Assembly: GCA_964509605.1 (NCBI GenBank)
Contig: CAZDXF010000002.1
Span: 25,514-89,513, forward strand
Reading direction: 5' to 3'
Length of the DNA stretch: 64,000 nt
Origin: an uncultured Candidatus Saccharibacteria bacterium
GTDB taxonomy: Bacteria; Patescibacteriota; Minisyncoccia; Phycocordibacterales; Zambryskibacteraceae
Shown: in pieces, positions 2,267 to 60,315 of the stretch
How the letters are laid out: every line of letters starts with the position of its first letter
Numbering within the stretch: the first letter of the stretch is position 1
Program-made: the position numbers and the translations under genes
The notes under the pieces: model-generated
Seen by the model: the letters and a program-made list of their open reading frames with translations, nothing else
Told to the model about the DNA's origin: nothing
The model's database searches: none

Positions 2267-2367
2267 AAACAGCAGAGGGTAAATAGCAGATTGCAAAATG
2301 CTTAAGCAGGAGAACCCAAAAACATTTGAAACGAAAAATAGCACAGACCCTCTTGTTTCTAACGGGA
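2258..2367. repeat. Palindromic intergenic element, family A, copy 1 (arms TCCCGTTAGAAAC / GTTTCTAACGGGA)
   Basis: Inverted arms at 2258-2270 and 2355-2367, extendable to ~20 bp. Begins at the rnhA stop and overlaps the annotated N-terminus of the comEC ORF. Confidence 0.5.
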
Positions 2368-4679: not shown

Positions 4680-5537
4680 ATGCTCCAATTTTTAAAGAAA
4701 AATTACAAAATTTTAAGCATAGGACTGCTTTTGTTCTTTAATATAACAATCTGGATTTTTGTTTTTGCTGAGAAGCCAAGAAGTTTTGTCGAAGTTTCGT
4801 TTTTGGATGTTGGGCAAGGCGACTCAATCCTGATAGAGGCAAGGAATGGTAATCAGGTTTTGTTTGATTCGGGGCCAAACAGAAAGGTGTTGTCAGAACT
4901 TTCAAAAGAATTACCTTTTTTTGACAGATCTATAGATATTCTTGTTGCTACTCATCCAGACACTGATCATATTGGCGGTTTCCCAGAGATTGTTAAAAGA
5001 TATAAAACAAGATTGTTCGTTGAGCCAGGGATAGGTTCGGAAACATCTCTTTATAAAGAGCTTAAAAATAGACTCAAGGCGGAGAGGGTCTCGGTTTTAG
5101 AAGCCAAAAAAGGAATGGTTATCGATTTGAAAGATGGAAGCTTTATAGAAGTCTTTTTTCCTGATAGAGATATTTCTGGCCTTGATCCAAACGACGCTTC
5201 TATTATCGCTAGATATGTGTTTGGAGAAGTTTGCTTTCTTTTGACAGGAGATGCTTCGCAGAAAATGGAAGAGTATGTTTTGAGTCTAGAAAAAGAAGAC
5301 CTGAATTGCGATGTGTTAAAGGTTGGACATCACGGATCAAAAACCTCCACTTCACCTGCTTTTGTCTCAGCTGTGTCTCCGAGTGTTGCGATAATTTCTG
5401 CTGGAAAAGATAATAGATATGGTCATCCACACGAAGAAGTTTTGGAAACCTTAGAAAAAGCAGGTATTGAAATATTAAGTACGGCTCAGATGGGTACTAT
5501 AAGAATGAGGACAGATGGAAAGAATCTAAATAAATGA
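4680..5537 (+). CDS. ComEC-type metallo-beta-lactamase domain protein (separate ORF), with N-terminal TM helix
   Basis: Motifs VSFLDVGQGDS, HPDTDHIGG and VGHHGS match the ComEC C-terminal MBL domain. Confidence 0.7.
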   Translation: MLQFLKKNYKILSIGLLLFFNITIWIFVFAEKPRSFVEVSFLDVGQGDSILIEARNGNQVLFDSGPNRKVLSELSKELPFFDRSIDILVATHPDTDHIGGFPEIVKRYKTRLFVEPGIGSETSLYKELKNRLKAERVSVLEAKKGMVIDLKDGSFIEVFFPDRDISGLDPNDASIIARYVFGEVCFLLTGDASQKMEEYVLSLEKEDLNCDVLKVGHHGSKTSTSPAFVSAVSPSVAIISAGKDNRYGHPHEEVLETLEKAGIEILSTAQMGTIRMRTDGKNLNK

Positions 5538-31458: not shown

Positions 31459-32697
31459 ATGGAAAAATCTGAGAAAATGATTAGGCTAGGGATTATTATC
31501 CTGGTGTCTTTCACGGTTTTTTGGGCAGTTTATTTAATAAAAAACCAATTTGTGTTAACGGGTAAAAATCTAAGAGATGGAGACGAGCTTTTAAAAGCAG
31601 AAGAAGTAAAAATTGACGAAAATCAAAGGAATTACGAGAAATATTTGATAAAAAAAATTTCTAATGAAGAACCTGTTGCCATCTTTGTATCTAATTCTGA
31701 CAATTCAATTTATTCATATAGCAAAAACGAAGGTAAAAAACTTATATTGAGTGCTGACGAATTACAAAAATATAACGATTCAAATTGGTATTATAATAAG
31801 TTAAACCTGAAAGGAGATTCTATTTTTTATACAACAAAAAAAGGCTTGTATTCAATTAGTATAAAAGGTGAAGTGCAGAATATATTGGATTTCAAGCTTT
31901 TTTCAGATTTTTTTGATGGTGTTTCTTTTATTCCATCTGAACCGATATTCTTGGATGATAATAGTTATATAATTAGTTTATCTTCTGGTGACAATGGTTT
32001 ACTACAACCAGATAGGGCCTTAATTATCAATGGAGATGCTGAGCAAAAGACAGGAACAATTGTTTGGGAAGAATCTGATGCCAGAGGACAATTATTGTTG
32101 GTTAATAAGAAATCTTTTGATGGCTATGTATATGTCACAAAGGGGGTGCCAAAGGGTTGTGGGGTTTGGCTAGATTTTCTTTTGGATCCAAATGATTTTT
32201 CGAAACACAGTGCGGATAATGAGCCAGGTCTATTTGAATATGGAAAAGAAGTTGTTTCACCAGATTTTAAATATGTGGCCAAGATGATTGAGCATCCAGA
32301 TGGTCATCCCAGGGGTGACATGTGTTATTCCGGTTATTCGGTTGGTATAGTTGCAATTTTTGACAAAGATGAAGGTATTTGGGATCTTGAAAAAGATCCA
32401 AGCTATGATTTTAGTCCGCTTGGTTGGACGAGTGATTCAAAATATTTCATATATTACAGAACAAAGTTGTCTTCTGAGTCAGATTTTGTCGTTTCAACTG
32501 AATACGCAATATTTTCTATGGAGACGGGTGAAAAATTTGTGGAAAAAGATAAAGAAGGAGTTGCGGATAGATTGAATCGCCTATATGGCACTGATTTATA
32601 TGAGGTTTTTATTTCTTCTAAATCTGATATTCCAGAATTTGATACGGACCATTTTGTAGGTTTTGTGGGTGCTTCTGAATTTTTTAGAATTTTTTAA
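31459..32697 (+). CDS. Hypothetical membrane-anchored extracellular protein
   Basis: N-terminal TM helix and a 412-aa ORF. Confidence 0.45.
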   Translation: MEKSEKMIRLGIIILVSFTVFWAVYLIKNQFVLTGKNLRDGDELLKAEEVKIDENQRNYEKYLIKKISNEEPVAIFVSNSDNSIYSYSKNEGKKLILSADELQKYNDSNWYYNKLNLKGDSIFYTTKKGLYSISIKGEVQNILDFKLFSDFFDGVSFIPSEPIFLDDNSYIISLSSGDNGLLQPDRALIINGDAEQKTGTIVWEESDARGQLLLVNKKSFDGYVYVTKGVPKGCGVWLDFLLDPNDFSKHSADNEPGLFEYGKEVVSPDFKYVAKMIEHPDGHPRGDMCYSGYSVGIVAIFDKDEGIWDLEKDPSYDFSPLGWTSDSKYFIYYRTKLSSESDFVVSTEYAIFSMETGEKFVEKDKEGVADRLNRLYGTDLYEVFISSKSDIPEFDTDHFVGFVGASEFFRIF

Positions 32698-32880: not shown

Positions 32881-33498
32881 ATGCAAGATAATAAAAAAAT
32901 ATTATGGGTTCTGTTGTCTCTGGTTTTGATTACTAATATATTTTGGATAGCCATTTTTTATTTTGGAGAATTTGTAAACACAAGTTATCTAGATCTCTTA
33001 GAAAAAAAGAAGGACCAAATAGAAGTAAAAAAAGAAAGTCGTCATTTTAATTTTTTTGACATTTCTGATCTAATTTATTCGCATGGCGATTTTAATCTCT
33101 CTCACATTGATTTTTTAATGCTGGGAGAGTCAGAAGTGGAAGGAAGTTTTAGGCTTATTTCTAAATTTAAGCCATATAAATTCGTCCCAATTCTAATGTT
33201 TAGAGTAGAAGGTGATGGGGTTGAAAAAATACCAAGAAGATCTTCTTCTTATGGAGCCATAGATGGTTTGCCGGTATTTTTTACTTTTGAAAATTACCAG
33301 GATGCATTGGAAATGTTGCAAATTGACGAAAAGGTTTTTGAGGATTCGTCCATATGTAGTGTAGAAGGGTCTGCCAAGATAAAAATAAAGGATTTCATAC
33401 TTGCCGAGTCTAGTGCTGAATTTGGCGCAATTGACTCCACTTCTCTTGAGGAAGTCATCTCTTTGAATGGTCCTAGATTAGTGAAGTGTGCGATTTAA
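32881..33498 (+). CDS. Hypothetical membrane-anchored protein
   Basis: N-terminal TM helix. Confidence 0.4.
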   Translation: MQDNKKILWVLLSLVLITNIFWIAIFYFGEFVNTSYLDLLEKKKDQIEVKKESRHFNFFDISDLIYSHGDFNLSHIDFLMLGESEVEGSFRLISKFKPYKFVPILMFRVEGDGVEKIPRRSSSYGAIDGLPVFFTFENYQDALEMLQIDEKVFEDSSICSVEGSAKIKIKDFILAESSAEFGAIDSTSLEEVISLNGPRLVKCAI

Positions 33499-37511: not shown

Positions 37512-39668
37512 ATGAAAAACAAAGAGTTGGTTGATTATATTAAATTACAAAAGACAAAGGGCACTCCATTGAATGTTATAAAATCAAATCTTCGTCTCGG
37601 AGGGGGGTGGAGCGATGGTGATATTGATGAAGCTCTTATGGAAATAAGTCCTGAAGCTGTAGAGGTCCACGGAGATTCACCAAAAATCGCAGAAAGCACG
37701 ACGCAGGAGACTTCGGATCTGTCTTTAGAAAACAACTCTATTCCACAAGGTTATCCGTCTCAGAGTTCAGGAGAGTCCGTTGATGCGCTGTCTACTTGGG
37801 CATCAGAAGAAAATAAAAATAAATTAAACAAAAGAGCCCTTGTGATAGGAAGCGTCTTTGCTTTAGGGGGAATTGTTTTGATTGTTATTTTTTATTTATT
37901 TTTTCCAAAGGTTGGGTTTTTTGTAAAGGGCAAATATACAGAAAGCACTTTTCTTACCAGCATAATTTCCAAGTCCTCTGAGATAAAATCCTCATCAAGT
38001 CGTATAAAATTGTCACTTTCAGTTGTTCCGCGTGATGCGGACGCTCAGCCAATTGTTGTTATAGAACCTGATCAAAAAAACAGAAAGGACTACCAAAATG
38101 ATTACACCAGATCTAAAGACGCCAGTTCATTGCTTAGTCAGCTTAAATATAGAAATTCTTATCCACCCAGTCTCAAAGCCTTAACTCAAAGCTCTGATTA
38201 TTTTTATCAAAAACCATCCCTAACTGATCCCGTTTCTGGCAGGGAGTACGAGTATCGCCTTACTGATAATGGCAGAAATTTTACTCTTTCTATCACCTTT
38301 GATACCAAAGACGCCATATCTACTATACGTCGTTCGTTGAGCCATACAGATGGTGGTAGTAGCACAGTAATAAATGGCCAGACTGTAACTTTCACCAAAG
38401 ATAGCAATCCTTTCTTTTTCTTTTCTCCGGAGCCACCCAAACCATTTTTAATGGAGTTTGCAGATATGTCAGCTTTTCTGCCATCAGAGCTTTCTGCTGA
38501 TGTCTCTTTTGGGGCTACCACTGATTGGAGTAATGCAGATTGGGAGTTTAATTTTGATGCAAATGGTGATTTTGGAGATTTGGTTTATAAAATAAATGTA
38601 GATGCTCTCAGAAAAGATGGTGACTATTATTTTAGAATTAATAATATGCCGAGCTTGTTTCTTGGGTCCTTGTCTTCGGTAAAAAACCGTTGGATTAAGA
38701 TTGCATCACAAGAAGAAAATAACCCAACAGGTTATGGAAATAGACTTTTATATTTTGCAAATTTAATTTCTGATTATGAGGAGACGACACAGAAAAATCA
38801 GGAAGAATCTATTCGTTTATTGCAAAAAATTTCAGAATTTGCTGATAAAGAAAAACTGTTTAAATTTAGAAAATCTCCGTCCCCGGATAAAATTGAAGGA
38901 AGGAGTTTAAAGCGATATGAACTAGAGTTTAGAAAGGAAGCCATCGTTCCATTTTATGAAAGACTTCTTGATGAAATAAATAGTGGCAACTACAGTAGTT
39001 ATGGTTTTATGTTAAACGACGAAGGTCTTTTGGAATATTTTAAGAGTAAAGATTTTGATGTGATGTTTGATTACTACAACAAAAACACTTTTCTCTCTTT
39101 GTGGGTTGATAAAAATGGCTTCCCCGTGATTTTGGAATACAAAATTCGTGTAGTTCCTCCTGACACAGCGTCTCAGCTTAAGGACAGGCAGTTAGAACTT
39201 GTTTTTAATCTGGCCCTTAACGATATTAACAAACAGGTTAATATTAAGAGCCCGGCGGATTTTGTTAATTTGGAAGAAATAATAGAAGATTCCCCTCTAT
39301 TTTCTGCTAGACAAACTGGAGCGAATGCAGCTATAAAGTCGAATTTAGCTTCCATTAGAGCGGAAGCAGAGATTTATTATGATTACAGTGGTAATTTTTC
39401 TTACGGACCGGCTAATCGGGGTGGGAATTGTGATACATCAGGTACTATTTTTGTTAGTGCCGATGTTAAAAAAAGTCTAAGCGCTATTAGGTCCGTTCTT
39501 TCTTCTAATAATGTTGATAAGCCTATTACCTGCTATAACACGGCAGTTAGTTGGGCTGTATCGTCCCCATTAATTTTATCGGAAGTCGAGGGGGATTATT
39601 GGTGTGTTGATTCTACGGGTTTTTCTGGTCCAATAAGAAATTCTATAGTAAGTGCTTCTTGCATATAA
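37512..39668 (+). CDS. Large membrane-anchored extracellular protein with C-terminal type IV pilin-like globular domain
   Basis: TM helix at ~aa 110-132. The C-terminal ~130 aa align with the pilins of this locus (KSNLASIRAEAEIYYD..., WAVSSPL...YWCVDSTG, terminal Cys pair), but there is no prepilin leader or N-terminal pilin helix. Confidence 0.6.
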   Translation: MKNKELVDYIKLQKTKGTPLNVIKSNLRLGGGWSDGDIDEALMEISPEAVEVHGDSPKIAESTTQETSDLSLENNSIPQGYPSQSSGESVDALSTWASEENKNKLNKRALVIGSVFALGGIVLIVIFYLFFPKVGFFVKGKYTESTFLTSIISKSSEIKSSSSRIKLSLSVVPRDADAQPIVVIEPDQKNRKDYQNDYTRSKDASSLLSQLKYRNSYPPSLKALTQSSDYFYQKPSLTDPVSGREYEYRLTDNGRNFTLSITFDTKDAISTIRRSLSHTDGGSSTVINGQTVTFTKDSNPFFFFSPEPPKPFLMEFADMSAFLPSELSADVSFGATTDWSNADWEFNFDANGDFGDLVYKINVDALRKDGDYYFRINNMPSLFLGSLSSVKNRWIKIASQEENNPTGYGNRLLYFANLISDYEETTQKNQEESIRLLQKISEFADKEKLFKFRKSPSPDKIEGRSLKRYELEFRKEAIVPFYERLLDEINSGNYSSYGFMLNDEGLLEYFKSKDFDVMFDYYNKNTFLSLWVDKNGFPVILEYKIRVVPPDTASQLKDRQLELVFNLALNDINKQVNIKSPADFVNLEEIIEDSPLFSARQTGANAAIKSNLASIRAEAEIYYDYSGNFSYGPANRGGNCDTSGTIFVSADVKKSLSAIRSVLSSNNVDKPITCYNTAVSWAVSSPLILSEVEGDYWCVDSTGFSGPIRNSIVSASCI

Positions 39669-43298: not shown

Positions 43299-43552
43299 AT
43301 TTTTTTAAAATCCTTTCTGGCGGTGTATTTTAAAAATAGCTCGAACTGCATTCCCTCGCCGAGCTTCGCGCGGCTCGGGTGCGGCGGGGCAAAAATGAGC
43401 GGCTCCGCCTCGCACACTGACAATTTTAAGTTTTTCTTTGGCGGAATACAAATTCGAGCGTGCGAAGCACCCACAAAATAGTTCTTTCAAACTCAAAAAG
43501 AAAGGCGCCGTACCCGGAGGTCGTGCGCCTGATTGCGACCGCATGACGCGGT

Positions 43553-43891
43553 CTAGTCCTTCTTGCCCTGGACATACTCGGGAACCTCGGCGAGCATCTC
43601 CGAGAGCATCCAGCCGGCCACAGCTTCCTTGTCCTCGTGCGAGAGGCCGAAGGTGCCGAGCAGGCCGAGGAAGCAATCCTTCTGGTGTCGCTGTACCGTC
43701 TCGTCGCCGGACTTCCATTTCCAGTTGGCGATGTTGGCACCGCCGAAGAAGACGCGGCTTGCGTAGCTCGACCACGGATTGTAGAGTTTGAATTCGGGCG
43801 GACAGAGCTTCGCGAGCTCACGCTCGTTGGAGAGTCCACCGAATGCCTGGCCGTGACCAGCGAACAGCGGGGACGCCGTCTGCGTTTCCAT
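43553..43891 (-). CDS. Hypothetical protein encoded in the high-GC island segment
   Basis: ATG at 43889-43891, preceded by AAGGAGGTG 7 nt upstream. 112 aa (METQTASPLFAGHGQAFGG...). The overlapping ORFs in other frames are GC artefacts. Confidence 0.5.
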   Translation of the reverse strand: METQTASPLFAGHGQAFGGLSNERELAKLCPPEFKLYNPWSSYASRVFFGGANIANWKWKSGDETVQRHQKDCFLGLLGTFGLSHEDKEAVAGWMLSEMLAEVPEYVQGKKD

Positions 43892-44533: not shown

Positions 44534-45481
44534 CTAATAACTAAAATTGACAGTCACGCTATCGCTGGAAGAATCAACTTTTCCGCTACTTGCCCCGCAA
44601 GTAAGTTGATACGTAGTCACGCCTGTCTTTTCATTTCCTGTCCAAACATTTTCAGATCCACTGGTGGACTTGGCACCAGACCAATATGTATCGCCTGAAG
44701 CAGTACAGTAATCAGAATTGTTTGATGTCCAACTGAAATTAGAGTAGCCAGCCGATTTTGTTATCGGGCCATCTGAATTGTTTATTTTTAGATCAGCTGA
44801 TGGCAGTTGCTGTGTTAACTGAAATGGCACTGTCACTGGATTCGAAGAATTAGTGCCGCCAGCTCCGGTACAGGAAACTGTATATGTCGTAGTCTGGGAA
44901 AGGGATACCGCCATCGACCCAGACGGTGATAATTTTGATTTTTCGAAATTACAGTAAGTCGCATTTGTTGATGACCAGTAAAGTGTAATTGTTCCGGGCT
45001 TCCCGTCAGAAACAATTGACGTTGGGTTCGCGTATAGGTACACGCTCGGAGACGGAATTGTTGTCTGGATAGGGTTAGGTGTCGGTGTAGGATTCGTTGG
45101 GGTTGGAGTTGTAACCGACGGAATTACTGATGCTGTGTTTCCACATTTACTGTTCCATAAGTTCCGTGTCTTTGGGCCATAAGTGCCGAAACCAAAAGTG
45201 TTCGATGGAATTCCAAGCCACGCTTGCAGTTGCGACACTCGACCGCCTGGCTCGGTGTCAAAATTGCCATAAGAGAGGTCGGCAAAGGTACTGCACGACA
45301 GCACACCTGTGGACCCCTGCAATTGGGCAATCTGTGCTTGAAGCGCTTTAATCTGCGCGAGCAAGGCCTGTATTTGAGCGGCAACATCAGTTGTTTGTGC
45401 AAAAGTTGGCGTTGCAAAGCCAATGGACACAAGAATTCCAAGCGTCAAGAATCCTGTGGCAATATATTTTTTCATGGTCAT
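44534..45481 (-). CDS. Secreted surface protein: signal peptide, Ala/Gln coiled coil, Thr/Pro linker, Ig-like beta domains
   Basis: N-terminal signal MTMKKYIATGFLTLGILVSIGFATPTFA, then AQIQALLAQIKALQAQIAQLQ, then TPTPTNPTPTPNP, then Ser/Thr/Gly-rich beta domains. Confidence 0.65.
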   Translation of the reverse strand: MTMKKYIATGFLTLGILVSIGFATPTFAQTTDVAAQIQALLAQIKALQAQIAQLQGSTGVLSCSTFADLSYGNFDTEPGGRVSQLQAWLGIPSNTFGFGTYGPKTRNLWNSKCGNTASVIPSVTTPTPTNPTPTPNPIQTTIPSPSVYLYANPTSIVSDGKPGTITLYWSSTNATYCNFEKSKLSPSGSMAVSLSQTTTYTVSCTGAGGTNSSNPVTVPFQLTQQLPSADLKINNSDGPITKSAGYSNFSWTSNNSDYCTASGDTYWSGAKSTSGSENVWTGNEKTGVTTYQLTCGASSGKVDSSSDSVTVNFSY

Positions 45482-46122: not shown

Positions 46123-47691
46123 ATGTCCAAACCAAAGTATTTTCTTTACGCTCGCAAGAGCATCGAGGACGATGACCGACAAGTGATGTCCATTGAGGCA
46201 CAGCTTTTTGAGTTGCGAGAATTGGCGCGTAAAGAAAATCTTGAAATTCTTGAGGAATTTCAAGAGTCGAAAAGCGCAAAGACGCCTGGACGCGAGGTAT
46301 TCGGCGAAATGATGTTAAAAGTAGAGAAATTGGATGGTGTCGGCATATTAGCGTGGCATCCCGATCGCCTCGCGCGTAATTCGATTGACGGTGGACGAGT
46401 AATTTACGCCGTGGACACTCGCAAGGTTGTGTCTTTGCGCTTCCCGACATTTTGGTTTGAACCAACCCCGCAAGGGCTCTTTATGTTGCAAGTGGCGTTT
46501 GGGCAGAGCAAATATTATTCTGATAACTTATCCGACAATATTAAGCGAGGTGTCCGCCAAAAATTGAGACGTGGCGAATGGTTGAACTTAGCTCCCTTTG
46601 GCTATCAAAACAACCCGCGTATTAGAAATATTGAACCTCATCCGACAAATGCTCGCGTGGTGAAGTTAGCTTTTGAGGAATACGCCAAAGGTTCGCACAC
46701 TTTTATTTCGCTCGCGCAATTTTTGGCGGACTTAGGTGTGGTAACAAAACACCAAACGCCACTCGCCAAAGTTTCCATCAAACGACTTCTTACTCATCGA
46801 GCATATCTCGGTTTCGTGAAGCATGGACAAGAATGGTTTGATGGAAACTTTGAGCCAATTATTTCTCCCGCATTGTTTGAAGCCGTGCAGAAAGTATTGC
46901 AAACGAAGGAAAGGCCGCGCAAAAGGAAAATCAAGCATGATTTTCCTTTTACCGGACTTTTTCGATGTGGCGAGTGTGGCAGTATGATTTCCGCACAGTG
47001 GGCAACTGGAAAGTCTGGTCGTCGTTATCGGTATTATCGGTGCTCGAAAAAGCGCGGCCATTGTTCGCAAGCTTATTTACAAGAAAGTGAACTTACGAGG
47101 CAAATCTGTGCACGGCTTCAAACAATTTCGCTTTGCGATCGCTATACCGACTGGATGTTAGATAAAGTGAAACTGTGGGAGCACGAGGAAATTGGAGCGT
47201 CGCAAAGCGAGGTTCAAAATCTTTCCGATAGTATCAAAGCGAACGAGGAGCGCATGGAAAAACTACTCTCGGCGTATTTAGATGGTGATGTACCAAAAGA
47301 GGTTTACCTTAAACGAAAAGATGTTCTCATGCGCTCTCTCGCCGCTTTGAAAGAGAAAAAGAAAGATTTTGAACGCGGAAGAAAAAATTGGGTCGAACCC
47401 TTGCGGGAATGGATTTTAGATATGAAACAAGCCGATTTTTTGTCCTCTTCGTCTGATTTGTACCAAATCAAGTCGTTCGTCCAAAAAATCGGAACGAACC
47501 CCTTGGTTCGTGACAAATCCGCCCATTTCGCCCTGCCCATTCCGTCCCAATTCGTCGCGGAGCGACGGAACATTTTGCCTAGCCCCGCGCCTTTGGCGCG
47601 GGCTTCTTCCCACCTTTCGGATTTGGAAGTTTCTTTCTGCGGAAGGGGAGGGATTCGAACCCTCGGACCGATTTCTCGGTCAACACATTAG
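46123..47691 (+). CDS. Large serine recombinase (resolvase/invertase catalytic domain + recombinase domain + zinc ribbon)
   Basis: N-terminal YARKSIEDDDRQ...SIEAQ catalytic serine motif, DRLARN, C-terminal CGECGS...YYRCSKK zinc ribbon. The ORF tail reads through IR-B' into the tRNA, so the true stop is uncertain. Confidence 0.8.
   Translation: MSKPKYFLYARKSIEDDDRQVMSIEAQLFELRELARKENLEILEEFQESKSAKTPGREVFGEMMLKVEKLDGVGILAWHPDRLARNSIDGGRVIYAVDTRKVVSLRFPTFWFEPTPQGLFMLQVAFGQSKYYSDNLSDNIKRGVRQKLRRGEWLNLAPFGYQNNPRIRNIEPHPTNARVVKLAFEEYAKGSHTFISLAQFLADLGVVTKHQTPLAKVSIKRLLTHRAYLGFVKHGQEWFDGNFEPIISPALFEAVQKVLQTKERPRKRKIKHDFPFTGLFRCGECGSMISAQWATGKSGRRYRYYRCSKKRGHCSQAYLQESELTRQICARLQTISLCDRYTDWMLDKVKLWEHEEIGASQSEVQNLSDSIKANEERMEKLLSAYLDGDVPKEVYLKRKDVLMRSLAALKEKKKDFERGRKNWVEPLREWILDMKQADFLSSSSDLYQIKSFVQKIGTNPLVRDKSAHFALPIPSQFVAERRNILPSPAPLARASSHLSDLEVSFCGRGGIRTLGPISRSTH
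47512..47642. repeat. 131-bp inverted repeat, right copy (IR-B'); abuts and overlaps the 3' end of tRNA-Ser
   Basis: Reverse complement of 45966-46096. The core CTTTCTGCGG at 47633-47642 includes the tRNA's last bases. Confidence 0.85.
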
Positions 47692-47783: not shown

Positions 47784-48443
47784 TTAATGAGCCATTGTAA
47801 AAGCCAATACTTTTTTAGCGCCTGCGGAAATCAGTGTTTTTCTAGCTTCTGACAGGGTGCTTCCGGTTGTTACCACATCGTCTATCAAAATTATCTTTGC
47901 GCCCGATATTTCATAACTGTTTTTGATTTCAAAACACCCTTCAAGATTTTTCAACCACTCCTTTCTTTTTAAAGAAGTTTGCGGTAGCGTGTCTTTTTTT
48001 CTAATCAAAATTTCTTTATTGTATTTAAGCAAACCACTCTGATCATTTTTTAAAATTGCTTCACAGATAAGCTCTACTTGGTTAAAACCCCGTTCAGTTT
48101 TTCTCTTTTTAGAAAGGGGAATTGGAATAAGGATAAAGTTTTTGTTTGCACTAGCCACCAGCTCATCTCCCAGGTTGTCTATGATTCTTTCGTAAATTAA
48201 ATTGCTAACCGCTTGTGAAAGTTTCTTATTTTCTTTGTATTTTATTGCCCAGACCAAAGCTCTTACTCTTCTGTCTCCATAATCAAACACAGATTCTGCC
48301 CACGATATCTTGTTATCAACACACTGCGGGAGGTAAGATAGCTTATTTTCATCAGCCATTTTTTCTAATTCCAAAACAGCTTTTTCTTTGGGAAATATGA
48401 AATCAACAATCTCTCCTGCTATTTTGGTCAGAAGACTTAACAT
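47784..48443 (-). CDS. comF: Competence protein ComF (phosphoribosyltransferase domain)
   Basis: C-terminal PRTase motif ILIDDVVTTGSTL. Confidence 0.7.
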   Translation of the reverse strand: MLSLLTKIAGEIVDFIFPKEKAVLELEKMADENKLSYLPQCVDNKISWAESVFDYGDRRVRALVWAIKYKENKKLSQAVSNLIYERIIDNLGDELVASANKNFILIPIPLSKKRKTERGFNQVELICEAILKNDQSGLLKYNKEILIRKKDTLPQTSLKRKEWLKNLEGCFEIKNSYEISGAKIILIDDVVTTGSTLSEARKTLISAGAKKVLAFTMAH

Positions 48444-49716: not shown

Positions 49717-50421
49717 ATGGATCCAAAATTTCAACCATCTTTCATACCAAAAAAAGCAGACTCTGGTCTGGACTCTTTCAAGAGGCCATCTAGCACCTCC
49801 GGAGGTTTGTTTTATCTACTTGGCGTTTCTTTATTTGTTCTTGCTTTGATTTCAGCAACAGGTGTTTTTGTGTATGAAAAATACTTAAACAGTCGAATAT
49901 CAAAGATGCAGGCTGATCTAGAAACAGCAAGACAGGCTCTAAACCCCGAACTAGTAAAGGACCTTTCTAGATCTCATGCGAGAATGATGTCTGCCAGAGA
50001 GATATTGTCAAAGCATGTTTCTATGACATCTTTCTTTTCTCTTTTGGGTTCTCAAACTCTTCAGGCCGTAAGTTTTAACGATTTTTCTCTAATGTCTTCT
50101 GGTGATGGAGCAATAACTGTAGAAATGTCCGGAGAATCTAGAGATTACAAAACAGTTGCATTGCAGTCTGAAATATTTTCCAACAATCCCTATTTTAGAA
50201 ACCCGTCTTTTTCAGGTCTTGATTTAAATGAATCTGGAAATGTTATTTTTAGATTTAAATCTGGTATTTCTCCGGACTTGGTTTTGTATGAAAAAACTTT
50301 TGAAGTAAAGCCAGTTTCGGAGATAACTCCACCGCCAGCCTCATTGCCCGAAGAATCAGCAACTGATTCAGCCGAAACTGAGCCGGTCGGAAATGAACAA
50401 GGCCCAGTAAACCCATCATGA
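49717..50421 (+). CDS. pilN: PilN-like protein
   Basis: Single TM then coiled coil; position after pilM. Confidence 0.55.
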   Translation: MDPKFQPSFIPKKADSGLDSFKRPSSTSGGLFYLLGVSLFVLALISATGVFVYEKYLNSRISKMQADLETARQALNPELVKDLSRSHARMMSAREILSKHVSMTSFFSLLGSQTLQAVSFNDFSLMSSGDGAITVEMSGESRDYKTVALQSEIFSNNPYFRNPSFSGLDLNESGNVIFRFKSGISPDLVLYEKTFEVKPVSEITPPPASLPEESATDSAETEPVGNEQGPVNPS

Positions 50422-54607: not shown

Positions 54608-55813
54608 ATGCTTTTTAATTACAAGGCAATAGATAATAACGGGGAAGAAAAAGTCGGAAGTATAGATGCGATAAATATTGATGTTGCAATAAGTTCGCTT
54701 CAGAAAAGAGGATTGGTTATTTCTTCCGTAACTCCAGTTGAGGAAGAGCTTATTAAAAAGCAGTTTTTTTTCCGTAGAAGAGTTTCTGGAAAGGATATTG
54801 TTATTCTATCCAGACAGTTGTCTACTCTTTTTGAAGCACAGGTTCCAGCTCTGAGAATTTTCAAACTTATTTCAGCCGAAGCTGAAAATTTGGTTTTAAG
54901 AAAAAGTCTTATTGAAGTGGCTGACGACCTTCAGGGTGGAAGTTCAATTTCCAAAGCGCTTTCTAAGCATCCGAATATTTTTTCTGATTTTTATGTAAAC
55001 ATGGTTCGTGCTGGAGAAGAGACTGGAAAGCTAAATGAGACATTTAGTTTTCTTGCAGATTATTTGGACAGAAACTACGAGGTTACATCAAAGGCCAGAA
55101 ATGCCCTTGTTTATCCAGCATTTGTCATCACTGTTTTTATTGGTGTTATGGCTCTGATGTTTACAATGATTATTCCAAAAATCAGCGTTATTTTGGTTGA
55201 ATCTGGTCAAGAGCTCCCGATTTATACAAAAGCAGTGATTGCAGTGAGCGATCTGTTTGTAAATTACGGCATCTTTATGCTCGTCGGTCTCATAATTGCC
55301 AGCTTTTTTGGTATTAGATATGTCAGGACTTCTGCAGGAAAATACGCCTTTGATAGTTTCAAACTAAGTGTTCCTTATGTCGGTGATCTTTATAGAAAGC
55401 TATATCTTTCTATAATTGCCGACAATATGAATACCATGGTGGCTAGTGGTATTCCAATGTTGAGAGCCATTGAAATTACGAGCAATGTTGTGGGTAGCGC
55501 AATTTACAAGCAAATCTTGGATGAAAGTTTGATATCGGTAAAAGGTGGAAGCTCTCTTTCAAATTCTCTTTCTCAATACGCAGATATACCAGGGATTTTG
55601 GTTCAGATGATTAAAGTTGGAGAGGAAACCGGAGAACTTGGAAGTATTTTGAAAACTATGGCGAAGTTTTATCAAAGAGAAGTGATGAATGCCGTAGATA
55701 CTTTGGTAGATCTTATAGAGCCGGTAATGATAGTGCTTTTGGGTCTTGGTGTGGGCGTTCTTTTGGCTTCTGTATTAATGCCTATATACAATATTGCTTC
55801 TACCGCCGCTTAA
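54608..55813 (+). CDS. pilC: Type IV pilus platform protein PilC (GspF family)
   Basis: Two GspF-like repeats and 3 TM helices. Confidence 0.85.
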   Translation: MLFNYKAIDNNGEEKVGSIDAINIDVAISSLQKRGLVISSVTPVEEELIKKQFFFRRRVSGKDIVILSRQLSTLFEAQVPALRIFKLISAEAENLVLRKSLIEVADDLQGGSSISKALSKHPNIFSDFYVNMVRAGEETGKLNETFSFLADYLDRNYEVTSKARNALVYPAFVITVFIGVMALMFTMIIPKISVILVESGQELPIYTKAVIAVSDLFVNYGIFMLVGLIIASFFGIRYVRTSAGKYAFDSFKLSVPYVGDLYRKLYLSIIADNMNTMVASGIPMLRAIEITSNVVGSAIYKQILDESLISVKGGSSLSNSLSQYADIPGILVQMIKVGEETGELGSILKTMAKFYQREVMNAVDTLVDLIEPVMIVLLGLGVGVLLASVLMPIYNIASTAA

Positions 55814-55928
55814 TTTCTTATCCACAGAGAGTTTTAAATTTGTTTTTTTTGGCTTATAATATAAGTACACGTTTAAAAAACGGCTGTCTTGGAAGGACAG
55901 GTCGATTAAAAATTAAATTATTTTAAAA

Positions 55929-56390: not shown

Positions 56391-56412
56391 TCTGCTTTTA
56401 GTTTCTTTTTTC

Positions 56413-56442
56413 AAAAACCCCGGTTTACCGGGGTTTTTGTTT
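56413..56442 (+). terminator. Rho-independent terminator after pilA
   Basis: aaaaccccgg-ttta-ccggggttttt. Confidence 0.6.
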
Positions 56443-56490
56443 GGGGATAAAATGCTGTGTTATAAACGAAATAATCTGTATAATTGATTT

Positions 56491-56958
56491 ATGAATAGAC
56501 AAAAAGGTTTCACTCTCATAGAACTTCTAGTAGTAATTGCCATCATTGGAATTCTATCTTCAGTTGTTTTGGCGAGTTTGAATACTGCTAGAGGGAGAAG
56601 TGCGAATGCTGCTATAAAATCAAATTTAGCAAATGTAAGAGCCCAAGCAGAGCTCTTTTACGATACGACTGGAAACAGTACATATGGCGCTTTTGGTACG
56701 GCTACTGCAAATTGTCTGACAACATCAGCAAGCCTGTTTGCTGATACTAAAATTAGGTCATTTATAACTTCTGCTCAAAGTGCCGGAGGGGGCACAGCTC
56801 TTTGCGCTTCTCAACCACTTTCGAATTCAACTTCTTTTGTAATTTCCGTTCAACTCAAACAAACAGAGGGCACATTTAACTATTGGTGTGTGGATTCTTC
56901 CGGAAGTTCTAAAGGACACGCTTCTGCTATTAGCGGAAGCCTAACAGCTTGCCCATAA
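56491..56958 (+). CDS. Type IVa pilin (second copy)
   Basis: Leader MNRQKG|FTLIELLVVIAIIGIL. Confidence 0.8.
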   Translation: MNRQKGFTLIELLVVIAIIGILSSVVLASLNTARGRSANAAIKSNLANVRAQAELFYDTTGNSTYGAFGTATANCLTTSASLFADTKIRSFITSAQSAGGGTALCASQPLSNSTSFVISVQLKQTEGTFNYWCVDSSGSSKGHASAISGSLTACP

Positions 56959-56968
56959 AAATAATTTA

Positions 56969-57144
56969 ATGAATAGACAAAAAGGTTTTACCCGCACACC
57001 TGTTTTAAGTAAATTTTCCAGAAATTTGTTCGGATTATTTTTTGCAAACCAAACTCAAAATGAGGGAGGCAAAGAATTAGATAAAACAGGTGTTAGCTCT
57101 GCCAAAGCAGAGCGCGGGTTTACTCTTATAGAACTTCTCGTGGT
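56969..57144 (+). repeat. 176-bp perfect direct repeat (second copy 57589-57764) spanning the 5' ends of two adjacent pilin genes
   Basis: Identical from the ATG through gaacttctcgtggt. Identity stops exactly there. Confidence 0.9.
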
Positions 57145-57544
57145 AATAGCGATCATTGGAATTTTAGCTTCGGTTATTACGGTAAATCTTACTAGTACAA
57201 AAAATAAATCTTCAAATACTGGGATAAAGACAAATTTAGCGACGGTTCGTTCTCAAGCAGAAGTTTATTACAATCAAAACAGCTATGTGTACGGATCTTA
57301 TTCAGGAGCGTGCCCCACAGTTTCAGGAACCGGACATGTCTTTTTGGATCCTGTTGTTGTTTCTGCAATGAATGCAGCAAAATCTGCCAGCGGGGGTACA
57401 GCTCAGTGCTGGGCAAATGGCAATCAGTGGTCGGCTTCCGTCCAACTCCGAGTTCCTGAGGGAAGTGCCAATCATTGGTGTGTGGATTCAACCGCAGCGG
57501 GCAGAGGTACAGCCACAGCACCAAGCAGTTCACTTTGTCCATAA
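56969..57544 (+). CDS. Pilin with unusually long (49-aa) leader
   Basis: MNRQKGFTRTPV...KTGVSSAKAERG|FTLIELLVVIAIIGIL. The 5' 176 bp are identical to the next gene. Confidence 0.7.
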   Translation: MNRQKGFTRTPVLSKFSRNLFGLFFANQTQNEGGKELDKTGVSSAKAERGFTLIELLVVIAIIGILASVITVNLTSTKNKSSNTGIKTNLATVRSQAEVYYNQNSYVYGSYSGACPTVSGTGHVFLDPVVVSAMNAAKSASGGTAQCWANGNQWSASVQLRVPEGSANHWCVDSTAAGRGTATAPSSSLCP

Positions 57545-57588
57545 AGTGTTATAATAGTGTTCTTAACGGTTTAATTAATTTTTTCAAA

Positions 57589-58185
57589 ATGAATAGACAA
57601 AAAGGTTTTACCCGCACACCTGTTTTAAGTAAATTTTCCAGAAATTTGTTCGGATTATTTTTTGCAAACCAAACTCAAAATGAGGGAGGCAAAGAATTAG
57701 ATAAAACAGGTGTTAGCTCTGCCAAAGCAGAGCGCGGGTTTACTCTTATAGAACTTCTCGTGGTCATCGCCATCATTGGTATACTTTCTTCAGTTGTCTT
57801 GGCGAGTTTGAATGCTGCTAGGGCAAAAGGAGCCGATGCGTCCATAAAGTCCAATCTCTCAAATATTAGGCCTCAAGCCGAAATATATTTTGATGACAAT
57901 GGTCATTACGGAGCTGATGTAGATGATAACTGCTCAGCTGGAATTTTTGCAGAGGCAACAATGTCCGCGGCCATTTCTCAAGCTTCCACTGTTAGTGGTA
58001 GTGCTGCAAGTTGTTTTGCAGAGGATGGCATTACTGGATCAGGGGGTACAGCTGCTAACAGCTGGGCCGTTTCAGTTCCTCTCAAGAGCGATCCATTAGT
58101 GCATTGGTGTGTTGATTACACAGGTATTTCTACTTCTACACCAAACGGAGCAGATATTACCAGTGATGTCGCATATTGCCACTAA
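57589..58185 (+). CDS. Pilin with long leader (start moved to MNRQKGF)
   Basis: Same 49-aa leader as 56969, with a distinct mature domain. A terminator follows. Confidence 0.7.
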   Translation: MNRQKGFTRTPVLSKFSRNLFGLFFANQTQNEGGKELDKTGVSSAKAERGFTLIELLVVIAIIGILSSVVLASLNAARAKGADASIKSNLSNIRPQAEIYFDDNGHYGADVDDNCSAGIFAEATMSAAISQASTVSGSAASCFAEDGITGSGGTAANSWAVSVPLKSDPLVHWCVDYTGISTSTPNGADITSDVAYCH

Positions 58186-58200
58186 AATGTAAGATTAAAA

Positions 58201-58240
58201 TCACCCCGTTCCGATGAGTCGGAACGGGGTGATTTGTTAT
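58201..58240 (+). terminator. Rho-independent terminator
   Basis: atcaccccgttccga-tgag-tcggaacggggtgat, then a T-run. Confidence 0.6.
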
Positions 58241-58251
58241 ATAATTAAAAA

Positions 58252-59073
58252 GTGATTTCAAACTTTTACTTAATTTCTTTCCTGTTTTTACTCGGAGCAG
58301 TTGTGGGCAGTTTTCTAAATGTGCTCATTTTGAGGTGGAACAGCGGTTTTTCTATTGGGGGGAGATCAAGATGTTTTTCGTGCTCAAAAACTCTTTCTTG
58401 GTATGAACTTTTTCCCATACTGAGTTTTATTTTCCTTAAAGGAAAATGCCGATCCTGTAAAACAAAAATTTCTTGGCAATATCCGACAGTAGAGTTTTTA
58501 ACGGGTCTTTTGTTTGCTCTCTCTTATTTATATTTTCCTTTTTATTTTGATTTATTTTCCGTGATTTTATTTGTATCCCTGCTTTGCATTTGGTCAGTGT
58601 TAATTTTCTTGGCGGTTTACGATTTGCGTCATATGATTCTGCCAGATTTTTTTGTTTTTCTTTTTGTTTTTCTTTCAGTGGTTTTTGCTTTTTCAAATCA
58701 TACTCTTGGAAATGTAAATCTGTCCTTGTTAGATCTGCTTTCTGGACCGATTCTTTTCACTTTCTTTTTCCTGCTTTGGTTTGTCTCAGGTGGGCGATGG
58801 ATGGGTTTTGGGGATGCTAAACTTGCTTTGGGAATCGGAATATTTTTGGGCTTTCAAAAAGGTATTGTTGCCGTAGCGTTGTCATTTTGGATAGGAGCTT
58901 TGGTAAGTTTACTTATAATCTTGGTTCAAAAATTCTATGTTTCTAGTAAAAAAGGTGGGTTGAGTCTTTCCTCCAAACAAATTACAATGAAAAGTGAAAT
59001 ACCTTTCGGACAATTTCTGATTTTAGGCACAATCCTGTCGTTTTTTATAGATTTTGGATTCTTTCCATTTTGA
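58252..59073 (+). CDS. pilD: Prepilin peptidase PilD (A24 family)
   Basis: N-terminal CxxC...CxxC zinc motif and TM core (DAKLALGIGIFLG). Confidence 0.85.
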   Translation: MISNFYLISFLFLLGAVVGSFLNVLILRWNSGFSIGGRSRCFSCSKTLSWYELFPILSFIFLKGKCRSCKTKISWQYPTVEFLTGLLFALSYLYFPFYFDLFSVILFVSLLCIWSVLIFLAVYDLRHMILPDFFVFLFVFLSVVFAFSNHTLGNVNLSLLDLLSGPILFTFFFLLWFVSGGRWMGFGDAKLALGIGIFLGFQKGIVAVALSFWIGALVSLLIILVQKFYVSSKKGGLSLSSKQITMKSEIPFGQFLILGTILSFFIDFGFFPF

Positions 59074-59729: not shown

Positions 59730-59732
59730 AAT

Positions 59733-60315
59733 GAGAAAATTTTTTAAAAAAGAAAAAAGTGAGGGAAACAGAGTGTTAAATAAAACAGGTGTTAGCTCCG
59801 CTAAAGCGGAGCGTGGGTTTACACTTGTTGAAATACTCGTAGCCCTTGCTCTGTTTATTACCGTTATGACTATTGGTCTAGGCTCTGTTATAAATGTTCT
59901 TGAAGCAAATAGAAAATCAGACTCTTTGAAGTCTGTAATGACAAATCTCAATTTTGCTCTAGAGGTGATGTCTAGGGATATAAAATTTGGAGACTCTTAC
60001 AGTTGTTCTATCTCTACTTGTTCAAGCGGGGACACTTCTATCTATTTTAGAAATAGCGATGGAATAAATGTCAGATACAGACTAAACAATAGCCGAATAG
60101 AAAAATCCGTCGATAATGGAGCGACCTATCAAATCATTACAGCCCCAAACATAGTGGTGCAAGATATGAGGTTTTATATCTTTGGCTACAACACCGGAGA
60201 TGGAGCACAACCTAGAGTTTTGATTTCTATTAGAGGGTATTCAGGTACAAAGCCATCAATTCAGACGACTTTCGTAGTGCAGACGACAGTCTCGCAGAGA
60301 GTTCTTGATTCATAA
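59733..60315 (+). CDS. Minor pilin with long leader containing KTGVSSAKAERG|FTL (alternative GTG start ~59775 possible)
   Basis: Shares the conserved leader-region hairpin motif with 56969/57589. GAGGGA lies 6 nt before the in-frame GTG. Confidence 0.6.

Follow-up and report, generated by a model that had tools for sequence, protein, structure and literature searches.

Non-reciprocal copying between pilin genes underlies pilE/pilS antigenic variation in Neisseria. In-frame palindromic insertions are already known as well, chiefly from Rickettsia, whose palindromic elements of ~100 to 150 nt, with no transposase, lie inside open reading frames (ORFs), in frame and without a stop codon, and are translated as an extra peptide (PMC10969869). 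Prepilin leaders range from 6 to 26 amino acids (aa), and those of type IVb from ~15 to 30 aa (PMC4471445). For the transposon IS608, TnpA recognizes subterminal imperfect palindromes at both ends (PMC3201880).

The window, the whole 64,000-nt stretch of DNA of an uncultured Patescibacteria bacterium that was analyzed, contains a pilus locus with a PilB-type ATPase (51327), PilM (48490), a PilD-type prepilin peptidase, and genes of the pilT type (53540) and pilC type (54608), whose homologs in a relative (L007) match T2SSE and T2SSF. Among its pilin genes are two tandem paralogs, A and B, and a minor pilin gene, which starts at 59731 and not at 59733 as given in a preliminary description made from the sequence alone. 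That description had reported an exact 176-bp repeat at the 5' ends of genes A and B, which we confirmed (176/176 nt, or 177 with one further base leftward). The identity does not end at the start of the mature pilin as had been stated, however, but covers the start codon, the entire leader, and 26 nt of mature codons (FTLIELLV+GT), and continues at ~96% to 57175/57795. The leader opens as in the neighbouring pilin, as had also been noted, with the first 20 nt of the repeat equal to 56491-56510; this neighbour, by its sequence, appears to represent the uninterrupted state of the site discussed below. The mature parts of A and B share 39% aa identity, or 31% past residue 30; gene A is 84% identical to its ortholog in the relative L004 (P0121/L004a).

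What interrupts both genes, at their Gly-Phe-Thr cleavage codons, is a 127-nt element which together with a second TTTAC makes up 132 nt, in frame and stop-free (Table 1). Its inverted-repeat ends read CCCGC-ACACCTGTTTTA and TAAAACAGGTGT-hairpin-GCGGG, the perfect inverted repeat being 12 nt long and a closing pair adding 5 nt, and region 56940-57180 (241 nt) folds at -59.1 kcal/mol (z = -3.0) with its ends paired. The insert ends in GGG and is followed by TTTAC, which rebuilds the G/FTL site (the slash marks cleavage), and the leader is therefore 50 aa long (M1-G50) instead of the 49 aa first proposed. The ~42 extra residues look like a single, self-contained palindromic insertion bounded by terminal inverted repeats and accompanied by a duplicated TTTAC. 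The earlier observation of a long leader that contains G-F-T twice is correct, and relatives have such leaders too.

Table 1. Positions in the window of the pilin genes, the repeat, and the parts of the insert
Feature	Position	Strand	Basis or remark
Neighbouring pilin, ordinary 6-aa leader MNRQKG/FTLIELL	56491..56958	+	N_methyl at residues 1-27
Exact repeat, copy 1	56969..57144	+	Identical to 57589-57764
Pilin gene A, 191 aa, 50-aa leader	56969..57544	+	ORF list; Pfam N_methyl at residues 46-70 (2.3e-9)
Short-leader relic ATGAATAGACAAAAAGGTTTTAC = MNRQKGFT	56969..56991; copy 2, 57589-57611	+	First 20 nt as in neighbour
Left TTTAC, end of leader relic	56987-56991	+	Flanks insert copy 1
Palindromic insert, copy 1, 127 nt (CCGCACACC...GCGGG)	56992..57118	+	Paired-end fold
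5' arm ACACCTGTTTTA	56996..57007	+	With CCCGC 56991-56995, left terminal inverted repeat; inverted repeat I10
3' arm TAAAACAGGTGT	57082..57093	+	Closing GCGGG at 57114-57118
Hairpin GCTCTGC-CAAA-GCAGAGC, helix 6 of fold	57096..57113; copy 2, 57716-57733	+	Between 3' arm and GCGGG
Right TTTAC direct repeat, Phe+1 and Thr+2 codons of mature pilin	57119..57123; copy 2, 57739-57743	+	
Exact repeat, copy 2	57589..57764	+	Logan contig L001 begins 30 nt before right end
Pilin gene B, 198 aa, same 50-aa leader as gene A	57589..58185	+	ORF list; Pfam N_methyl at residues 46-71 (3.4e-9)
Palindromic insert, copy 2, 127 nt	57612..57738	+	Exact repeat of copy 1
Prepilin peptidase, PilD-type	58252..59073	+	Pfam A24_N_bact 9.7e-30, Peptidase_A24 1e-14
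Minor pilin gene, 194 aa	59731..60315	+	Leader holds the element's 3' 62 nt (59756-59817), including the hairpin
Hairpin GCTCCGC-TAAA-GCGGAGC, minor pilin leader	59795..59812	+	Same place as in genes A and B

Short-read assembly may misplace repeats, and the identity of the two copies could in principle arise in a metagenome-assembled genome when a repeat is collapsed or duplicated. In an independent assembly of SRR15237813 (Logan), the sequence does break at the repeat, and the contig is 100% identical to the window across the 6,266 nt compared. However, the break lies exactly 30 nt inside the right boundary of copy 2, and these 30 nt, present at 57115 and 57735, are the k-1 overlap expected of a genuine de Bruijn branch, which argues that the repeat is not an assembly artefact. 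The flanks of the copies also differ, encoding two distinct full-length pilins, and in L004 both orthologous genes contain inserts, which differ from each other in sequence. We regard an artefact as hardly credible.

The identity of the copies is far above chance or ordinary paralogy, because the mature parts are only 39% identical and the two leader segments of L004 (L004a and L004b) differ from each other at 29/129 nt (pS 0.46). With the L004 copies diverged and the window copies identical, the identity in the window is best read as a recent gene-conversion tract, and the recombination of 5' cassettes suggested in the preliminary description fits. In L004, the inserts of both genes have the same length as in the window and an open frame; judging from these copies, the element appears to predate the split from L004.

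The consensus fold of the element has 44 pairs in six helices. The preliminary description had pointed to a hairpin with a compensated change in the minor pilin gene, and this hairpin is real, with folding energies of -12.3 kcal/mol (genes A and B) and -13.8 kcal/mol (minor pilin), both copies folding as predicted. It is just one of the six helices, however, and the nature of the segment as an insertion had been missed. The proposed selection on hairpin structure is borne out and is strengthened by three more variants found in relatives: across five sequences the stem is 94% paired, with one position occurring as U-A, C-G, and A-U, and in L004 the pairing is kept at the price of aa changes from A to D, S, or T. 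Over the whole fold, at a small comparative depth of three full-length and two partial copies, six pairs changed on both sides, against 2.3 in shuffled alignments (2/500), and the covariation score was reached by 0/500 shuffles. The compensatory changes are spread over four helices, in copies at orthologous sites. The 19-nt 5' arm region (alignment A2 columns 7-25, window 56990-57008) has 0 differences to L004a and 1 nt to L004b, and the 3' arm plus hairpin has 4 to 6 differences in 38 nt; the arms are thus nearly invariant, whereas the mature region reaches a pS of 0.66, with synonymous sites saturated. We conclude from these comparisons that the fold appears to be kept by selection acting on nucleic acid. 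Arms invariant in place and compensated internal helices would exceed the needs of a dead transposon relic and, as a point against the insertion reading favoured below, indicate a present function.

One candidate function is that the ~130-nt segment now serves the host as a structured mRNA, a cis-regulator of the translation, stability, or processing of secondary pilins placed in a discarded part of the protein. Here its palindromic origin would be secondary, and since the proposal concerns present function, it is compatible with origin by insertion. Besides the near invariance of both arms at synonymous sites and the compensatory changes, it would account for the hairpin being retained where the 5' arm is absent (the minor pilin gene and L007) and despite aa changes. 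The sense strand folds somewhat better (44 pairs, -38.6 kcal/mol) than the antisense strand (37 pairs, -32.7 kcal/mol), although this bias is partly inherent in the way the structure was predicted, and G-U pairs outnumber C-A combinations (10 versus 3 cells, counted by hand from the covariation tables). On the other hand, palindromes fold on both strands and as DNA, the full-length sequences number three, and the internal helices are not common to the inserts of other loci (L005, L002, and L006). No conserved loop or bulge motif that would suggest a ligand or protein site was seen, and no Rfam family matched: with Rfam 15 at E <= 10, the sole match in the element was Bacilli-1 on the minus strand, with 17 bits against a gathering threshold of 55.6 (E = 2.9). 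We therefore consider a regulatory mRNA element possible but doubtful. The hairpin is also not a terminator, as no U-tract follows it and a terminator scan did not include it.

Both pilins have the features of class III signal peptides at the rebuilt site, G50/FTLIELLVVIAIIGILASVI, with Phe+1, Glu+5, and ~21 hydrophobic residues, and their N_methyl domains lie correspondingly further inward than that of the neighbour (Table 1). The leader carries 9 K/R against 4 D/E. Its 50 aa exceed the prepilin range of 6 to 26 aa (~30 aa for type IVb), and among relatives with a recognized cleavage motif, 221/254 have leaders of <20 aa by the position of the cleavage Gly. In the window, L004a, and L004b, the 129-nt segment from ACC to GGG (the insert and the 2 preceding bases) is of equal length, without indels; each of the three has an open frame 0, and the remaining frames hold 2 to 5 stops. 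Substitutions by codon position were 5:9:16, 7:10:15, and 6:9:14, with position 3 favoured (dN/dS 0.24-0.41), a bias that is merely modest in the middle of the insert. The ATG at 56969 has the usual A/T-rich context of starts in the window. In L004, the leader relic is decaying (MKNIK--T and MKREKDFT) and contains a 6-nt indel, yet it remains in frame and so does the upstream ATG. Translation from ATG 56969 and removal of the whole 50-aa leader by the prepilin peptidase are probable.

The preliminary description had also mentioned an ordinary leader made from an internal start. On such a reading, translation would begin after the SD-like GAGGGAGG with a leader of ~15 aa (MLxKTGVSSAKAERG), and all of the sequence further upstream would be structured 5' untranslated region, open by chance. 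An in-frame GTG is indeed present there in the minor pilin gene and in L004a, and a TTG one codon later in L004b, and the gene caller used for L004 picked that GTG (P0121 begins MLDKTG...). However, the two repeated genes read GAA TTA at this site, with no in-frame ATG, GTG, or TTG there or following, and the collection's gene call on this contig uses the upstream ATG. The SD-like reading of GAGGGAGG did not hold up either: an SD-like motif precedes 2/45 long-ORF starts in the window, compared with 10.6% at random positions, and since the genome barely uses SD sites, the motif is irrelevant. Together with the upstream frame, ATG, and length kept in three copies against 2 to 5 stops in the other frames, this makes an internal start very unlikely. 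Programmed translational bypass from GGU-UUU-ACC to GGG-UUU-ACU was rejected, as the frame of the insert is open and conserved among three copies, and as L004a has lost the take-off codons.

Relatives have the same architecture, which fits a family of long-leader pilins, one of the readings offered earlier. Among other Patescibacteria pilins, the layout of a short leader with GFT, a palindrome, and a G/FT site was found at the protein level in P0136, P0209, P0164, and P0033 and at the DNA level in L005 (20-nt inverted repeat, 90%) and L002 (16 nt, 88%), each flanked by TTYAC. L006 has two tandem 108-nt units with one common TTCAC, likewise TTYAC-flanked, with an inverted repeat of 17 nt (82%). 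The inserts of these three loci are other palindromes, with the stem architecture in common with the window element but not the internal helices. A covariance model built from the window element also matched L005, at 20.9 bits, and L007, where the copy has shrunk, at 36 bits. The segment in the minor pilin gene of the window belongs to direct-repeat family D4 of the window (79% over 94 nt; cmsearch 46 bits), and its orthologs P0002 and P0003/L003 (84-85% identical) are without it, with the leader MKFLFFKKEKKLNSG/FTL. Likewise, L007 and L036 differ by 27 nt, the hairpin module, which lies exactly between the Gly-1 and Phe+1 codons in L007 and is absent from L036.

In wider searches, the back-translated motif KTGVSSAKAERGFT had 0 matches in genome and metagenome contigs; a looser hairpin pattern hit 28 loci, all chance matches save a Paceibacteria metagenome-assembled genome already found; and the 5' end pattern matched viral contigs 101 times, with a matching 3' arm in 0 cases. 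Leader-only protein searches in a word-indexed collection returned nothing, a weak result, as the index missed the window's own proteins present there. Two candidates were set aside. A palindrome in the pilC-pilin spacer of L007 and L036 does not count as an independent non-pilin insertion site, as its 63-nt indel resembles a vestigial pilin 5' end, and P0043/L138, with a leader ending in KAERG, lacks the hairpin and is of unproven kinship.

We compared the insert with MITEs, miniature transposable elements that have inverted repeats. Terminal inverted repeats are present in the window and also in L005, L002, and L006, and filled and empty states of orthologous sites were found twice (the minor pilin gene of the window against L003 and P0002; L007 against L036). 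TTTAC or TTCAC occurs on both sides of the insert in the window, L005, L002, and L006, but as it also encodes the required Phe-Thr, the apparent target duplication is confounded, because solely insertions that restore G/FT would survive and these could mimic a duplication. Copies were found only in three pilin genes in the 64-kb window and, at the relatives' loci, only at pilin or vestigial pilin 5' ends; the numerous copies at scattered, unrelated loci that typify MITEs were thus not seen. The ~39 window ORFs scanned with Pfam included no cognate transposase, and their sole recombinase is a large serine recombinase (46123-47691). The IS1380 family has 'CC' ends and 4- to 5-bp duplications, which offers a lead but not a test.

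A different origin would be a non-autonomous, PATE-like derivative of an IS200/IS605-type single-strand transposon, which would insert 3' of TTAC or TCAC and duplicate no target sequence; its right-end subterminal hairpin would be the GC-rich hairpin, and its own cleavage site the right TTTAC. Every insert does lie directly 3' of TTTAC or TTCAC, as the target site of IS608 is 3' of TTAC, and the foot of the hairpin and the start of an internal hairpin lie 10 nt from the right end and 20 nt from the left end, respectively, compared with 10 and 19 nt in IS608 (PMC3201880). However, the family is without terminal inverted repeats, while repeats of 12 to 20 nt reach the ends here. The two end hairpins of IS608 resemble each other, whereas the left (A/T-rich) and right (G/C-rich) hairpins of this element are unrelated in sequence. 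By inspection, the 4 nt 5' of the left hairpin foot mismatch the left TTAC in both pairing schemes, and those 5' of the right foot match the right TTAC at 3/4, which is not compelling. The inserts of L005 and L002 are simple long palindromes with no separate hairpins, and neither a Y1 transposase nor TnpB was found among the ORFs scanned. We judge such an origin unlikely. Three other kinds of element were dismissed by inspection: an integron attC site, as the repeats on either side are direct rather than inverse cores; the target hairpin of a diversity-generating retroelement, as the site is at the gene 5' end and no reverse transcriptase was seen; and an invertible pilin segment, as all pilin genes are on one strand.

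The explanation we favour, and hold as a whole to be rather probable, is an in-frame, MITE-like insertion whose translated product the prepilin peptidase then cuts away. Both genes would have started as ordinary type IV pilins opening with MNRQKG/FTLIELL like the neighbour. A small palindromic MITE-like DNA element would have landed at the TTTAC of the Gly-Phe-Thr codons and left a second TTTAC, adding 132 nt in frame and without a stop. Its terminal GGG and the duplicated TTTAC would regenerate the G/FTL site at the 3' end, with the first GFT becoming a dead relic. Translation would still start at the original ATG and read through the element into a positively charged 50-aa leader, which the prepilin peptidase, encoded 500 bp downstream, would cut off entirely; because the whole leader is removed, the insertion would cost the mature pilin nothing. 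Recent gene conversion between the tandem paralogs would have made the 176 nt identical in the present genome, and an older partial conversion may have carried the 3' half of the element into the minor pilin gene. The fold may be kept for mRNA structure or as a signal for copying or recombination.

A bolder proposal, which we advance tentatively, comes in two versions. Either the fold acts in cis as a structured RNA of a new kind, controlling secondary pilins from a disposable leader, or it marks a selfish element specialized on the conserved GGN-TTY-AC cleavage codons of pilins, which gene conversion would carry from paralog to paralog and which selection would not see since the prepilin peptidase "splices" its peptide out. 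If the favoured insertion history is true, extra DNA could live cost-free inside an essential surface-protein gene, with the cell's leader peptidase stripping the added peptide, and class III signal peptides with roughly double the customary maximum length are predicted. The data also reveal a conserved six-helix fold within the 5' coding region of Patescibacteria pilin genes; the pili of these bacteria are central to host attachment and DNA uptake. For annotators, the choice of start codon in these pilin genes is to be taken as unreliable. Start calling was in fact inconsistent, one caller having chosen the internal GTG (L004) and another the upstream ATG (this contig).

An element that sits repeatedly and precisely at prepilin cleavage codons and rebuilds the site with its own end was not found in the literature searched. 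Like type IVb prepilins, genes A and B encode a class III signal peptide (Gly-1, Phe+1, Glu+5, hydrophobic helix) and have a dedicated peptidase; unlike them, their 50-aa leader is ~2 times the usual upper range, the mature N terminus is type IVa-like (FTLIELLVVIAIIGIL), and the extra length is a discrete insertion with a second, dead GFT within the leader. As in Neisseria pilE/pilS, copying within the cluster gives identical tracts in otherwise diverged pilin genes, but here conversion affects the 5' leader instead of the variable C-terminal part, each gene is complete, and neither silent cassettes nor a G4 element were seen. IS608 and other IS200/IS605 ends are alike in the insertion 3' of TTAC and in the hairpin distances (10 nt right, ~19-20 nt left) and differ in that here there are terminal inverted repeats, the hairpins are unrelated, and TnpA/TnpB was not found. 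With classical MITEs, the element shares terminal inverted repeats of 12 to 20 nt, 4- to 5-nt direct repeats TTYA(C), a size of 70 to 135 nt, the lack of its own coding capacity, and its being present in some orthologs and missing from others; in contrast to them, neither a parent IS nor copies at unrelated loci were found, selection may account for the duplication, and the fold is conserved in place. Rickettsia palindromic elements, to which an Rfam scan gave no sequence relation, are similar as small palindromes without a transposase, in frame and translated as an extra peptide. However, they are scattered over many unrelated genes, whereas all copies seen here are at pilin G-F-T codons, the extra peptide is part of a leader that would be removed, and the element rebuilds the cleavage site.

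The long-leader repeat with its insert is a real, coherent feature of a type IV pilus cluster (see the table) in a Patescibacteria (Paceibacteria-like) genome. The G+C content is 38.8%, and relatives carry the labels Patescibacteria, Paceibacteria or Minisyncoccia. A gene for a large serine recombinase (46123-47691, plus strand, 522 aa) with Resolvase, Recombinase and Zn_ribbon_recom domains lies about 0.8 kb upstream of the cluster, adjoining a gene for a ComF-like phosphoribosyltransferase (47784-48443). The latter and a ComEC-type competence channel (2298-3893) share the window with the pilus genes, as would fit pili that take part in DNA uptake. Strong G+C-rich hairpins, each with a T-run behind it, at 56408-56445 (after pilin 55929) and 58188-58238 (after pilin 57589) were not listed by a simple terminator scan; they look like intrinsic terminators, which would make 56491-58185 a possible single transcription unit. 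ORFs of 151 to 718 aa at 31459-32697, 37512-39668, 44534-45481 (minus strand), 32881-33498, 43305-43775 (minus strand), 49717-50421 and 965-1420 gave no Pfam match at E ≤ 0.001.

Features of the type IV pilus cluster (window positions)
Feature	Position	Basis
PilM	48490	
PilB-type ATPase	51327	
pilT-type gene	53540	homolog in relative's locus L007
pilC-type gene	54608	homolog in relative's locus L007
Four pilins	55929, 56491, 56969, 57589	
Prepilin peptidase (PilD)	58252	
Minor pilins	59070, 59731, 60317	
PilX_N protein	60859	
ligA	61366	

Direct comparison of the two long-leader genes, 56969 (gene A, 191 aa) and 57589 (gene B, 198 aa), bore out the claimed exact repeat: 56969-57144 equals 57589-57764 at 100% over 176 nt (177 with one extra base leftward). 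Two details of the preliminary description had to be corrected, as the leader has 50 aa, not 49, and the identity extends 26 nt into the mature codons instead of stopping at their start. The mature parts are 39% identical (31% past residue 30), and the genes are old paralogs. An assembly artefact as the source of the identity was rejected. An independent Logan assembly of SRR15237813 (contig L001) matches the window perfectly across the 6,266 nt compared and has its first base exactly 30 nt before the right-hand limit of repeat copy 2, those 30 nt being present at 57115 and 57735; a k=31 graph breaks in this way at genuine repeats, which shows that this one is real. The fragment L004, syntenic and from a different sample, has orthologs of both genes (that of gene A 84% identical), and both orthologs carry the insert. 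The L004 copies have diverged (pS 0.46 between the two), so the window copies must have become identical recently, and the pattern bears the signature of gene conversion.

As had been proposed, the long leader opens like the ordinary leader of the adjacent pilin (56491), MNRQKG/FTLIELL (slash, cleavage site); the first 20 nt are identical. The repeated genes then run through ATGAATAGACAAAAAGGTTTTAC, 127 nt (56992-57118) and a second TTTAC to the usual mature-pilin TCTTATAGAACT, and the added 132 nt are in frame and stop-free. The left inverted-repeat end of the insert is CCCGC plus ACACCTGTTTTA; the right is TAAAACAGGTGT plus GCGGG, with an 18-nt hairpin wedged between these two parts. This hairpin was confirmed at the positions claimed, with predicted folding energies of -12.3 kcal/mol in the repeated genes and -13.8 kcal/mol in a third gene, a minor pilin whose start moves from 59733 to 59731. 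The 241-nt region 56940-57180 is predicted to fold with the insert ends paired (-59.1 kcal/mol, z = -3.0). The terminal GGG of the insert and the duplicated TTTAC recreate a complete Gly/Phe-Thr-Leu site at its 3' end. In the short-leader relic, the first GFT is followed by RTPVL without a hydrophobic helix, and the Pfam N-methylation motif falls at residues 46-70, against 1-27 in two short-leader paralogs. With 9 K/R versus 4 D/E, the 50-aa leader fits the positive-inside rule for prepilin leaders (PMC4471445), in keeping with probable PilD cleavage at G50/F51.

An exhaustive HMMER search, together with a search using the minor pilin as query, gave four informative groups of loci. The cleavage glycine lies within a leader of <20 aa in 221 of the 254 relatives with a recognized cleavage motif, among which double-GFT proteins are rare exceptions. 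The comparison among copies covered the 129 nt from ACC to GGG, which comprise the two bases ahead of the insert and its 127 nt. This segment has equal length and zero indels in all copies; each of the three distinct copies is open in frame 0, with 2 to 5 stops in the other frames. The 5' relic in L004 is decaying yet in frame (MKNIK--T and MKREKDFT versus MNRQKGFT in the window). The same layout with other palindromes recurs in proteins P0136, P0209 (locus L005), P0033 (L002) and P0164 (L006), where a canonical short basic leader is followed by GFT, an in-frame palindrome and G/FT. The inserts of L005, L002 and L006 start with CC, end with GG, are flanked by TTYAC and have terminal inverted repeats of 20 nt at 90%, 16 nt at 88% and 17 nt at 82%, respectively. 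In L006 (85-300) the palindromic unit is doubled: two in-frame copies of 108 nt, 72% identical, lie in tandem with one TTCAC in common, and the leader reaches 88 aa and includes three GFT motifs.

A covariance model built on the window-type element likewise matched L005 (20.9 bits) and, at 36 bits, a shrunken copy in L007. In the orthologs nearest to the third gene (84-85% identical), the leader reads MKFLFFKKEKKLNSG/FTL and the KTGVSSAKAERG segment is missing, and a 27-nt difference between L036 and L007 is the hairpin module, precisely between the Gly-1 and Phe+1 codons. The pilC-pilin spacers of L007 (4360-4430) and L036 (350-420) include an extra 63-nt segment, absent from the window (55813-55820), in which ATG...GGTTYAC is joined to a 37-nt palindrome (CCGCACAC...GTGTGCGGG); the palindromes of the two relatives differ by T-A versus C-G, a compensated change. 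The segment resembles a vestigial pilin 5' end that contains a shrunken window-type element. Leaders of the distant minor pilins P0043 (L138, 280-345) and P0058 end in KAERG/FS (window, SAKAERG/FT), the hairpin being absent, and may be decayed relatives or chance resemblances. We saw no copies outside pilin 5' ends in the window or the relatives' loci and no transposase among about 39 window ORFs scanned. Searches of large DNA collections yielded just one further genome. A leader query found no match in a word-indexed protein collection, but negatives from this non-exhaustive index are weak, since it returned nothing even though the window's 191-aa and 198-aa proteins sit there as singleton clusters.

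Several lines suggest that the insert is translated. Substitutions by codon position (1:2:3) among the three copies favour position 3 (5:9:16, 7:10:15 and 6:9:14), dN/dS is 0.24-0.41 versus 0.07 in the mature part, the upstream ATG remains in frame across a 6-nt indel, and insert length and frame are conserved. The third-position bias is modest in the middle of the insert, so protein-level constraint is weak there, which fits a discarded peptide. Translational bypass was rejected, because the insert frame is conserved and open in three copies and L004a lacks the take-off codons.

An internal-start model was likewise rejected: genes A and B read GAA TTA around the supposed start and offer no ATG, GTG or TTG in frame there, and SD usage is near absent. 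The earlier argument from an SD-like motif upstream of this start fails, as such motifs hardly ever precede start codons in this genome; GGAG, GAGG or AGGA occurs within 20 nt upstream of 2 of the 45 long-ORF starts in the window (e.g., 10755, 53540, 54608 and 56969), versus 10.6% of random positions. The third gene and both L004 orthologs have GTG or TTG at or beside the site, so these could yield a shorter precursor. Start calls differ, as one caller took the internal start in relative P0121 and another the upstream ATG in the window contig. ATG 56969 has an A/T-rich context typical of starts in this genome. TGTATAAT plus 6 nt plus ATG is conserved ahead of a pilin gene in three genomes (window 56477-56493, L007 ~5115-5135, L036 ~1085-1110), an arrangement that points to leaderless pilin mRNAs. 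Another extended -10 box (TGTTATAAT) occupies 57547-57555, 33 nt ahead of ATG 57589.

The insert is under structural constraint. Copies differ at 0-1 of 19 nt in the 5' arm, 4-6 of 38 nt in the 3' arm plus hairpin and 24-25 of 73 nt in the middle, and synonymous sites of the mature region are near saturation (pS 0.66). The RNAalifold consensus has six helices with 44 pairs, six of which changed on both sides with pairing kept. The number of double-changed pairs was reached in 2 of 500 shuffles and the covariation score in 0 of 500, and sliding the partners lowered pairing from 94% to 36-52%; these statistics are somewhat inflated because the structure came from the same sequences. The hairpin alone is 94% paired over five distinct sequences, with C-G, A-U and U-A at one position and C-G and A-U at another, so the compensated change first taken as a sign of selection on structure is joined by further pair types in relatives. 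The hairpin changes in L004 replace A by D, S or T in the encoded peptide, which shows that pairing was preserved at the peptide's expense. Folding is slightly more favourable for the sense strand (-38.6 kcal/mol) than for the antisense (-32.7 kcal/mol), which would hint weakly at an RNA role. That the element is a host-serving mRNA element, a reading compatible with an insertion origin, is possible if doubtful.

We favour insertion of a palindromic MITE-like element at the TTTAC of an ordinary pilin gene, which would still be translated from its original ATG and its product cleaved by PilD at G50/F51. An older conversion may have carried the 3' half of the element into the minor pilin (79% identity over 94 nt). 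An IS200/IS605-type origin would account for the TTAC/TCAC target and for hairpin distances of 10 and 20 nt, close to the 10 and 19 nt of IS608 (PMC3201880), but inverted repeats at the termini and hairpins that are unrelated to each other contradict it, and we consider it very improbable.

These pilins fit the class III signal-peptide definition except in leader length, which is 50 aa here against 6-26 aa for prepilin leaders and about 15-30 aa for type IVb (PMC4471445). By mode of working, the closest analogues of the favoured MITE-like element are the Rickettsia palindromic elements and other in-frame MITEs (PMC10969869). Unlike these analogues, the insert has a single, repeatedly hit target, the prepilin cleavage codons; the cleavage site restores itself, and the added peptide would be removed by the leader peptidase.
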